This document shows, in pieces, positions 57,451 to 59,534 of a stretch of 64,000 nucleotides of DNA. How positions within the stretch are numbered: the stretch's first letter is position 1; each line of letters begins with the position of its first letter. Under the pieces are notes generated by a model, which was given only the letters and a program-made list of their open reading frames with translations, did not search any database and was not told the DNA's origin. The position numbers and the translations under genes were made by a program. Source of the DNA: Escherichia coli (lineage in GTDB: Bacteria > Pseudomonadota > Gammaproteobacteria > Enterobacterales > Enterobacteriaceae); assembly GCF_036507355.1 (NCBI RefSeq), contig NZ_AP027877.1, one strand, 5' to 3'.

Positions 57451-57674
57451 TCACCTCCCAGAGCCTTGCTGATTGCTGCAAGACCTTTATTAACAGCTCC
57501 ATACCATTCTGGATATGTTGTCGTTGTTCTATTTTTGGATTGCTTAAGTAATAACTGAAGTGCTTCGAGAAGGTCAGGTGCTGCCGCTATTAGATTGGCA
57601 TCTTCAATACATTGAACTGAATCGCCACGGGTTTAACAGACACCTCAGAGTCATTTAAGATGGCTTAAAGAGAG

Positions 57675-57959
57675 GTGCCCATGAGCGGTAAGCGTTATCC
57701 CGAAGAGTTTAAAATTGAAGCAGTCAAACAGGTTGTTGATCGCGGTTATTCTGTTGCCAGCGTTGCAACACGTCTCGATATCACCACCCACAGCCTTTAC
57801 GCCTGGATAAAGAAGTACGGTCCGGATTCTTCCGCTAATAAAGAACAGTCAGATGCTCAGGCCGAGATCCGCCGTCTCCAGAAAGAGCTGAAGCGGGTTA
57901 CCGACGAACGGGACATATTAAAAAAAGCCGCGGCGTACTTCGCAAAGCTGTCCGACTGA
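57675..57959 (+). CDS. IS3-family transposase OrfA
   Basis: 94-aa ORF MPMSGKRYPEEFKIEAVKQVVDRGYSVASVATRLDITTHSLYAWIKKYG... Confidence 0.85.
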   Translation: MPMSGKRYPEEFKIEAVKQVVDRGYSVASVATRLDITTHSLYAWIKKYGPDSSANKEQSDAQAEIRRLQKELKRVTDERDILKKAAAYFAKLSD

Positions 57960-58015
57960 GGTACGCCTTTATCCGTGACAACACCTGTTGCTGGCCTGTT
58001 CGCCTGCTCTGTCGG

Positions 58016-58828
58016 GTGCTGGATGTTCATCCCAGTGGTTTTTACGCCTGGCTTCAGCAGCCGCATTCACAACGCCATCAGGCAGACCTGAGGCTGACAG
58101 GGCAGATTAAACAGTTCTGGCTGGAATCGGGATGCGTCTATGGTTATCGCAAAATCCATCTGGATCTGCGGGACAGCGGGCAACAGTGCGGAGTGAACAG
58201 AGTCTGGCGACTGATGAAACGTGTCGGGATAAAGGCTCAGGTCGGATACCGGAGCCCGCGGGCACGTAAAGGCGAGGCCAGTATCGTGTCGCCCAACAGG
58301 CTCCAGCGACAGTTCAATCCGGATGCTCCGGATAAGCGTTGGGTAACGGACATAACCTACATCAGGACCCACGAAGGCTGGCTGTATCTTGCCGTGGTTG
58401 TTGATCTGTTCTCACGCAAAATTATCGGCTGGTCCATGCAATCCCGGATGACAAAGGACATTGTCCTGAACGCACTGCTGATGGCTGTATGGCGCCGTAA
58501 TCCCCAAAAACAGGTGCTGGTTCATTCGGATCAGGGCAGTCAGTACACAAGCCATGAGTGGCAGTCGTTCCTGAAATCACACGGCCTGGATGGCAGCATG
58601 AGCCGTCGCGGTAACTGCCATGATAATGCGGTTGCAGAAAGCTTTTTCCAGTTGTTGAAACGCGAACGGATAAAGAAAAAGATCTACGGAACGCGGGAAG
58701 AAGCCCGCAGCGATATTTTTGATTACATCGAAATGTTTTATAACAGTAAGCGTCGGCATGGTTCCAGCGATCAGATGTCACCGACAGAATATGAAAACCA
58801 GTATTATCAACGGCTCGGAAGTGTCTAG
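58016..58828 (+). CDS. IS3-family transposase OrfB (DDE)
   Basis: 270-aa ORF with DDE motifs (WVTDITY...HSDQGSQYTS...NAVAESFF). Confidence 0.85.
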   Translation: MLDVHPSGFYAWLQQPHSQRHQADLRLTGQIKQFWLESGCVYGYRKIHLDLRDSGQQCGVNRVWRLMKRVGIKAQVGYRSPRARKGEASIVSPNRLQRQFNPDAPDKRWVTDITYIRTHEGWLYLAVVVDLFSRKIIGWSMQSRMTKDIVLNALLMAVWRRNPQKQVLVHSDQGSQYTSHEWQSFLKSHGLDGSMSRRGNCHDNAVAESFFQLLKRERIKKKIYGTREEARSDIFDYIEMFYNSKRRHGSSDQMSPTEYENQYYQRLGSV

Positions 58829-58846
58829 ATTATCCGTGGCGATTCA

Positions 58847-59226
58847 ATATTGGCCTGATAATTGAAATTGATGACTCAGTATTCAATAATGCATCTAAAT
58901 TCGTAGGTGGTGTTGTTATTCTTGATAATCTAGTTTGTGAATGTAAGACCTATCTCAAAAGAATCGCTTTAAGTCGTATTAGCGGAAGTACTTTTGGCGC
59001 ATTCAACGGAACAGGTCTTACAATTAACGGAGCAAGAGAGATTTACATGGTAAACTCTGGTGGTCATTATAGTAATGACAATGCTATTCACTTAATCAAT
59101 GTGCGTAATAGTGTTTTTTCTGGCAGTAGTTTTACTAACGCTGTGAACTCATGTCTTCTTTTAGATGATTGTCACGACTTAACATTTACCAGTGTGAATG
59201 CTGGTTTTGTAGAGGTATACGAATAA
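58847..59226 (+). pseudogene. Phage tailspike/tail-fibre-like C-terminal fragment (beta-helix-like repeats), 5' part removed by the IS3-family element
   Basis: Open frame without start codon ending at TAA 59224..59226: ...ILDNLVCECKTYLKRIALSRISGSTFGAFNGTGLTINGAREIYMVNSGGHYSNDNAIHLINVRNSVFSGSSF...VEVYE. Confidence 0.35.
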
Positions 59227-59534
59227 TGGCCAACATAACCCCAAAGTATGGGTTCAACATATCAACAGGGTGCACAGGTATTATTTTAGTAGGTTGCACC
59301 AGTGCAGGTAATAGTATTGCAAACATAACTGGTGGCGGTTATGTAGATGGTAGCACTAGAGTATTAGCATGTAATGGCATGCCTGATTCAGTTATTGTTC
59401 TCCGTGGGTCTACTGCGGAGCGCCCTACAGCACCAGTCAGTGGGCAGATGTATTATGATACAACGCTAGGTCTTCCAATATGGTATAACGGCACAGCTTC
59501 ATCATGGCAGCGAGCTGATGGAACAAATACTTGA
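59226..59534 (+). CDS. Hypothetical phage protein (possibly tail-fibre associated)
   Basis: ATG overlaps the preceding TAA (TAATG); MANITPKYGFNISTGCTGIILVGC... The ORF-track start at 59169 looks like an upstream extension. Confidence 0.4.
   Translation: MANITPKYGFNISTGCTGIILVGCTSAGNSIANITGGGYVDGSTRVLACNGMPDSVIVLRGSTAERPTAPVSGQMYYDTTLGLPIWYNGTASSWQRADGTNT

Follow-up and report, generated by a model that had tools for sequence, protein, structure and literature searches.

An ISEhe3 copy at a probable internal deletion junction of a degraded P22-like prophage in Escherichia coli

The locus and its insertion element

The stretch of Escherichia coli DNA analyzed here (contig NZ_AP027877.1, 64 kb, hereafter the window) has a P22-like prophage integrated at the sib locus, with mdtA on one side and yegL on the other; the prophage is O-antigen-converting (gtrABC) (Table 1). 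The order of the region from its left end is mdtA (far left), a SIB RNA, a truncated integrase gene, an IS600 fragment, an ead/Ea22-like gene, and two IS1 copies. It continues with an Sf6 gene-33-like gene, a gp34-like remnant, the insertion sequence (IS) ISEhe3, a tailspike remnant, gtrC, gtrB, gtrA, two SIB RNAs, and yegL. The attachment region is marked by SIB RNA copies on both sides and by a 345-bp direct repeat (52309–52652 and 62686–63030). Only gtrABC remain intact among the prophage genes. Their sizes equal those in intact prophages, and the DNA of the gtrC region is 99.4–99.8% identical to that of E. coli prophages. The integrase N-terminus and the recombination, immunity, replication, lysis, and virion genes have been lost to IS600, IS1, and ISEhe3.

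Table 1. Features of the prophage and its insertion element in the 64-kb window.
Feature	Position	Strand	Remarks
Prophage left-arm context, as a whole	52722–57166	−	
Truncated integrase gene	52722–53465		prophage left arm
IS600 fragment	53607–54120		prophage left arm
ead/Ea22-like gene	54150–54770		prophage left arm
Tandem IS1 copies	54757–55524, 55534–56301		prophage left arm
Sf6 gene-33-like gene	56297–57166		prophage left arm
3' remnant of early-left (PL) operon gene, 56 codons + stop	57447–57617	−	homologue of mEp043_046 / Sf101 gp34
ISEhe3 (IS3 family, IS51 group), complete copy	57618–58846	+	E. coli chromosomes and plasmids have full-length copies at 99.9% identity
Left terminal inverted repeat	57618–57655	+	outer 13 nt perfect, 5'-TG start
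orfA, 92 aa, HTH_Tnp_1 DNA-binding protein	57681–57959	+	Pfam PF01527, E=2e-22; ORF list
Slippery heptamer A AAA AAA	57920–57926	+	predicted −1 programmed frameshift site, orfA to orfB
Possible frameshift-stimulating stem-loop, 11-bp stem	57932–57967	+	5 nt 3' of slippery site
orfAB transposase, 382 aa after −1 shift	57681–58828	+	orfB part is HTH_21 + rve (DDE)
Right terminal inverted repeat	58809–58846	+	outer 13 nt perfect, CA-3' end
Tailspike large-ORF 3' remnant, 125 codons + stop	58849–59226	+	aligns to intact 480-aa tailspike ORF
Intact small tailspike ORF, 102 aa	59226–59534	+	last beta-helix rungs + C-terminal subdomain (predicted)
gtrC-type (495 aa), gtrB (309 aa), gtrA (120 aa)	59580–62342	−	intact O-antigen glucosylation genes; PF14264

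The element is 1229 bp in length. The 13-mer TGAATCGCCACGG occurs at exactly two sites in the window, 57618–57630 (+) and 58834–58846 (−), with 0.11 matches expected by chance when up to one mismatch is allowed; over their full 38 nt, the terminal arms are 74% complementary. The ends are fixed apart from the repeats as well. Megablast matches span element positions 1–1229 at 99.9% identity in many unrelated contexts, and a stand-alone contig of exactly 1229 bp in a Pantoea assembly consists of the element alone. The repeats and these full-length copies confirm the 1229-bp element with perfect 13-bp ends that had been proposed from the sequence. Self-BLAST found a single ISEhe3 copy in the window, which rules out a composite transposon.

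The element was compared with the characteristics of the IS3 family, namely a length of ~1.2–1.55 kb, 5'-TG...CA-3' ends, orfA and orfB joined by a −1 frameshift, an rve DDE core, and a 3–4-bp target duplication. Its length and its ends (TGAATCG...CGATTCA) agree with these characteristics, as does a predicted two-ORF −1 frameshift design, the conceptual fusion of which is 382 amino acids in length. The fusion, OrfAB, matches the IS3 family transposase profile NCBIfam NF033516 over its full length (positions 1–369 of 369) with a score of 437 bits (cut-off, 160), which bears out the proposed family membership. Pfam detects rve (PF00665, E=3e-33), HTH_21, and rve_2/3 in OrfAB. The D/D/E residues of the rve core (in WVTDITY, HSDQGSQY, and AVAESFF) align with those of IS600 OrfB.

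Copies 99.9% identical to the element are labeled 'IS3 family transposase, programmed frameshift' by PGAP at equivalent coordinates. The stem-loop downstream of the slippery heptamer has a folding energy of −17.6 kcal/mol, no better than shuffled sequence (z = −1.0), and its role as a frameshift stimulator is suggestive only. At element position 974, the window copy has T instead of the G of the common E. coli variant, which changes a single OrfB residue conservatively, from E to D. The window copy of ISEhe3 is complete and apparently functional.

The initial annotation had left the element unassigned, a description that does not hold. ISEhe3 was first described on pPATH of Pantoea agglomerans/Erwinia herbicola. 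The exact OrfA sequence of the window occurs in 552 contigs, and its UniRef name is 'ISEhe3 transposase A'. A 92-amino acid ISEhe3 orfA has been annotated in Shigella flexneri 2457T and 8401 (PMC4924310), and a list of twelve IS in reference genomes of S. flexneri includes ISEhe3 (PMC7373316). The ISfinder entry places ISEhe3 in the IS51 group of the IS3 family, with P. agglomerans as its origin (AF327445; PMC10425158, Table 8). ISEhe3 is thus an already catalogued element. The same annotation had rightly set the element apart from the IS600-like copies in the window, to which it is 39% (OrfB) and 36% (OrfA) identical.

Naming by ISfinder requires at least 90% nucleotide and at least 95% amino acid identity to the reference, AF327445. 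The OrfA annotation, the 98.2% identity to the 1229-bp Pantoea contig, and the IS51-group assignment (PMC10425158) served as proxies for AF327445 itself. Judged by the database annotations and by the 98.2% identity to the Pantoea copy, the element is most probably ISEhe3. Full ISEhe3-type copies in species-representative genomes are 88.5–99.3% identical to the window copy, and the family splits into copies that are ~98–99% and ~89% identical to it; strict application of the ISfinder thresholds might rename one of the two clades. This division, the fact that a copy annotated as ISEhe3 in phage SfIV is 89.4% identical, and a comparison made through proxies rather than with AF327445 would all be compatible with a new, unnamed IS3-family element merely related to ISEhe3. 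We consider this quite improbable, as UniRef names the exact OrfA 'ISEhe3 transposase A', an ISEhe3 orfA of 92 amino acids is known in S. flexneri, and Pantoea, the genus of origin, has the 98.2% identical copy of the same length. Even then, the element would be an isoform-level relative of ISEhe3 that is itself present in thousands of sequenced replicons.

ISEhe3 is widespread. Megablast detected at least 80% of the element in 187 E. coli records and in 702 plasmids. The left end was found in 115 stretches in a scan of species-representative genomes, in Pantoea, Erwinia, Franconibacter, Kosakonia, Leclercia, Klebsiella, Enterobacter, Citrobacter, and other genera; Salmonella arizonae is also among the species that have it. 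In one 4.64-Mb E. coli chromosome, OrfB is encoded in identical form at least four times (BED21537, BED21860, BED21997, and BED22359), which suggests recent activity and the availability of partners for recombination.

Flanks of ISEhe3 and the probable internal deletion

The 1.3 kb to the left of ISEhe3 (56304–57617), on the minus strand, matches the early-left (PL) operon of lambdoid and P22-like phages, among them Sf101 and mEp043, at 98% identity, and this homology ends exactly at the IS. Pfam detects no families in the left-flank ORFs; their assignment comes from the DNA matches to annotated phages. Translation of the gp34-like remnant, compared with the 98-amino acid mEp043_046, shows that its first ~42 codons are missing.

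The right flank belongs to a different gene. Positions 58847–59534 are 98.5–99.2% identical to the 3' part of the tailspike gene of intact P22-like prophages. The flank begins 1063 nt into the tailspike ORF of these relatives (codon 355 onward) and so lacks the 354 codons before that point and, with them, the P22 head-binding domain. In one P22-like prophage contig, which has an intact ORF at 8559–10001 (480 amino acids, PF09008 Head_binding), the alignment starts at position 9622. The right-flank product also matches the CBA120 TSP3 tailspike in the PDB (E=3.6e-16). A truncated beta-helix tail protein gene had been predicted to the right of the element, with alignment to phage tailspikes as the suggested check, and these matches uphold the prediction. 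The further claim that the element is inserted in the tailspike gene holds for the right flank but not for the left, which is an early-left-operon gene on the opposite strand.

The sequences bordering the element are ...CATTGAAC on the left and ATATTGGCC... on the right, without a direct repeat of 2–5 bp. The 3–4-bp duplication characteristic of the IS3 family is thus absent from the window copy (AAC and ATA at its two sides), as had been noted at the outset, and inspection of the flanks found no microhomology at the junction. The initial annotation had allowed for a well-known IS with a canonical duplication that had been overlooked; the IS is indeed known, and no overlooked duplication is present.

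Could ISEhe3 simply have inserted into an intact tailspike gene, with the duplication later lost by point mutation? The tailspike sequence runs right up to the IS end, as such an insertion would require. However, the 1.3 kb on the left is 98% identical to early-left genes and not to the tailspike 5' part, and intact relatives read ...ACAATGGAG before the junction point, whereas the window reads ...CATTGAAC before the IS. The flank identities refute a simple insertion, to which we give next to no probability.

The order int, ea22, gene 33, gp34', IS, 'tailspike, gtrCBA agrees with the Sf101 map. The two flanks are not neighbors in the intact phage, and so the IS marks an internal deletion. The missing interval on the Sf101 map is about (38.7−25.7)+15.7 kb, or roughly 29 kb. 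This interval would have included N, the immunity region, replication, nin, lysis, and head and tail genes, and the 5' part of the tailspike gene. We are confident that the locus is a known ISEhe3 at an internal deletion junction of a degraded P22-like prophage. An undeleted prophage at this site was found in no assembly searched, and we infer the pre-deletion state from the sequences of relatives integrated elsewhere.

As the flanks are noncontiguous, the absence of a target duplication from the window copy is accounted for: a deletion junction cannot carry one. Among 28 distinct full-length ISEhe3 copies with flanks, five have a 3-bp direct repeat, against 0.8 expected (permutation, p about 0.001), and none has a repeat of 2, 4, or 5 bp. 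The excess over expectation indicates that the canonical ISEhe3 duplication is 3 bp, as in the IS3 family. The other 23 of the 28 copies, including that of phage SfIV, have no duplication; for another such copy in E. coli, the joined flanks are contiguous in no complete E. coli genome, which made it unsuitable as a control for clean insertion. With duplications so often lacking, absence alone is weak evidence for a deletion, and it is the flank identities that carry the argument.

Both junctions were observed in independent assemblies. The left junction is present in Logan ERR3330519 contig 310, reached by exact-protein look-up, which is 100% identical over window positions 56275–57645 and has the IS1 end at its other side. 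A 30-mer scan of JGI metagenome contigs for the left junction gave no matches. The right junction is present in GCA_905398585.1 and GCA_905398635.1 at 99.9% identity. Neither flank together with the IS is spanned in any of the 5,426 RefSeq complete E. coli genomes, among which there was thus neither a sister state nor a pre-deletion state of the locus.

These data bear on whether unrelated loci might have been joined in assembly across a repeated IS. ISEhe3 is multicopy, as in the 4.64-Mb chromosome with its four or more identical OrfB copies, and the two junctions occur together in no single independent contig. Against an assembly artefact, each junction recurs independently, and both flanks derive from one prophage, are ordered and oriented as expected, and are bordered by the mdtA and yegL sides of a single chromosomal locus. 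Additionally, the exact OrfB and the 59-amino acid ORF of the remnant have consecutive accessions (BED21860 and BED21861) in the 4.64-Mb E. coli chromosome. We regard such a misjoin as extremely unlikely and retain the deletion junction.

The mechanism and activity of transposition and the route of deletion are matters that we infer. By analogy with IS911, IS2, and IS3, ISEhe3 would transpose by a copy-out/paste-in pathway via a circular intermediate, normally generating a 3-bp duplication. The deletion may have arisen either by recombination between two directly oriented ISEhe3 copies or by adjacent deletion brought about by one copy; both routes fit the sequence equally, and both would erase the target duplication. 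There is a precedent in the IncC plasmid pT5282-Ct2, for which a 24.5-kb deletion has been reported along with an ISEhe3 insertion (PMC6872532). The damage to the left arm by IS1 and IS600, together with the deletion, would have locked the prophage in place. The gtr operon is convergently oriented and has ISEhe3 on its downstream side; there is no indication that the IS regulates it.

The locus is a classic example of prophage decay to which a known IS has contributed, on an IS-rich chromosome of the E. coli/Shigella type. The retention of the serotype-converting gtrABC cargo after the loss of phage functions is the familiar pattern of a locked-in module. As a practical point, when a target duplication is missing, the contiguity of the flanks should be checked before an element is called unusual.

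A two-ORF tailspike

The tailspike remnant appears frameshifted at 59224–59228 (GAA TAA TGG), where the small ORF starts at a TAATG that overlaps the stop of the large ORF. We rejected a frameshift lesion (stop at 59224–59226), as the same two-ORF layout occurs in intact prophages and in phage AV104. In intact P22-like prophages at other sites, a 479/480-amino acid ORF ends in ...GFVEVYE and a stop, and a 102-amino acid ORF starts at the overlapping ATG (MANITPKYGFNIST...). The exact 102-amino acid protein of the window adjoins such intact tailspike ORFs. The architecture of the intact relatives is that of P22-like tailspikes, in which an N-terminal P22 head-binding domain precedes a right-handed beta-helix receptor-binding domain, with PF09008 on the 479/480-amino acid ORF and a modeled beta-helix.

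The two ORFs are arranged likewise in Kagunavirus phage AV104, a lytic isolate (PMC10844046), with identities of 35%/45% (...GTFELYE and a stop, followed by MATIIQTNGINIGS...). In two more lineages, homologues of 99–103 amino acids lie directly 3' of beta-helix ORFs of 489–561 amino acids that have other N-terminal adaptors; in these, an O-antigen-modifying gene is usually next, on the opposite strand. In total, the tailspike is split in five lineages, into about 480–560 and about 100 amino acids and at the same beta-helix loop. These lineages share only 35–45% identity at the extremes. Residues at the boundary are conserved: the large ORF ends in (F/V)E(V/L)YE and a stop, and the small ORF starts with MA(N/S/T)(I/L). 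Four forms of the junction occur (TAATG, TAG-N10-ATG, TGA-N8-ATG, and TAA-AGGAG-N6-ATG), and the frame offset differs too. A programmed frameshift joining the two ORFs is unlikely, since offset and junction vary and every small ORF begins at an ATG of its own, preceded in one lineage by AGGAG.

Many homologues of 450–680 amino acids, including CBA120 TSP3, are single chains across the split point. AlphaFold models the fused receptor-binding part as a beta-helix (pLDDT 87) with a TM score of 0.77–0.79 to CBA120 TSP3, and the split is positioned in a low-confidence loop between beta-strands. The split aligns to about residue 527 of TSP3. As the TSP3 beta-helix comprises residues 169–574 and the D4 beta-prism subdomain residues 598–627 (PMC6517402), the split falls inside the beta-helix, ahead of D4. 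The small subunit would supply the final rungs of the beta-helix together with the beta-prism subdomain at the C-terminus.

On balance, we favor the view that the window remnant derives from a conserved two-gene, split beta-helix tailspike module. The simplest reading is a tailspike that would be built from two polypeptides. We found no description of a two-ORF tailspike in the literature searched. Co-assembly of both polypeptides into one spike, if true, would make the construction of this tailspike unusual. This module and the low share of ISEhe3 copies that have a duplication (5/28) are by-products of the analysis that are perhaps worth separate attention.

Comparison with known systems

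The window copy resembles ISEhe3 (AF327445) in its IS3-family organization, its TG...CA ends, and its orfA and orfB with a frameshift, and copies 98–99.9% identical occur in Pantoea, E. coli, Klebsiella, and Enterobacter. There is no structural difference; the window copy departs from ISEhe3 only in the single D-for-E change in OrfB and in its lack of a 3-bp duplication. IS600, IS911, and IS629, found in Shigella and E. coli, belong to the same family and share the two-ORF frameshift design and the DDE transposase, although IS600 is a separate element, as its low identity to ISEhe3 indicates. IS629, of the IS51 group, has ends similar to those of ISEhe3 (TGAACCGCCCCGG).

The ISEhe3 of the Shigella serotype-converting phage SfIV (KC814930, ORFs 23 and 24) is located between tail-fiber genes and the gtr cluster, and it too lacks a flanking duplication. 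Unlike the window copy, to which it is only 89.4% identical, it lies between genes. SfIV is an isolated phage whose 39.8-kb genome is complete, whereas the window prophage is dead, with about 29 kb lost. Other IS-eroded, cryptic gtr prophages of S. flexneri and E. coli (for example, the gtrIC region and CPS-53/KplE1) similarly have an intact gtrABC inside an IS-wrecked prophage, and ISEhe3 fragments adjoining the gtrIC cluster have been reported (PMC4924310). The window prophage differs from these in its location at the sib locus (mdtA/yegL) and in its gtrC type; its gtrA and gtrB DNA is ~81% identical to that of SfI, SfII, and SfV.

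Attachment region and IS1 copies

Copies of the SIB RNA (sib/ibs type I toxin-antitoxin) are located on both sides of the prophage remnant, between mdtA and yegL, and the whole insert is flanked by a direct repeat (345 bp, 92%). The integration site of the prophage appears to lie within the sibA-sibB repeat or adjacent to it. In the left arm, a pair of identical IS1 copies, arranged in direct tandem with a 9-bp spacing, stands in place of the erf/abc2/kil/cIII segment. Another two identical IS1 copies occur in the window.

Coordinates of features in the window and in compared sequences (L-numbers)
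Feature	Sequence	Position
Two-ORF tailspike	window	58849-59534
Two-ORF tailspike	L007 (intact P22-like prophage)	8559-10309
Two-ORF tailspike	L140	1412-3212
Two-ORF tailspike	L143, L144, L147	
102-aa small tailspike ORF	window	59226-59534
SIB RNA copies	window	52314-52456; 62691-62833; 63020-63168
Direct repeat	window	52309-52652; 62686-63030
Tandem IS1 pair	window	54757-55524; 55534-56301
Other IS1 copies	window	4227-4994; 17568-18336
Variant base of ISEhe3	window	58591
ISEhe3 copy	L005	3001-4228
Prophage with gtrCBA, int and xis	L003 (E. coli GF66.2)	4370-10409

Target duplications and variation of ISEhe3

A 3-bp target duplication was observed in five of the 28 distinct full-length ISEhe3 copies from L001-L138, which is significantly above chance yet a minority of copies. 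The copy in the Shigella phage SfIV has no target duplication, and a right flank beginning with TACT is common to four copies.

At element position 974, the ISEhe3 of the window has T, as compared with G in common E. coli copies, placing Asp instead of Glu in OrfB immediately ahead of the conserved SMSRRGNC motif. The Asp variant is on record only from a single 4.64-Mb chromosome, and its presence in at least four copies there suggests that this form of the element expanded within that chromosome's lineage.

Tailspike architecture

In the prophage of E. coli GF66.2, int and xis come immediately after the same gtrCBA module, as in the vegetative gene order. The tailspike of this prophage is encoded by one ORF of 587 amino acids and has in common with the split version only the N-terminal ~165 amino acids and the last 44; these ends are conserved, and the receptor-binding core between them has therefore been exchanged.

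The small ORF of the split tailspike has at its C-terminus (residues ~57-101) a motif of ~40 amino acids, GSTAERPTAPVSGQMYYDTTLGLPIWYNG..W. This motif is widespread, terminating many tail-fibre and tailspike proteins, including those of Cellulophaga and Bacillus phages, and it also occurs in giant proteins (1,300-4,700 amino acids) in up to 13 tandem stretches.

Sequence comparison revealed five diverged lineages in which the tailspike is split into ORFs of ~480-560 and ~100 amino acids, with the split falling in the same β-helix loop in each. The residues at the boundary are conserved (large ORF, ...ELYE*; small ORF, MAS...), and the stop/start junction is encoded by four different DNA sequences among the five lineages. 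In contrast to this two-ORF arrangement, CBA120 TSP3, a homologue of solved structure, and other single-chain homologues continue uninterrupted through the split point.
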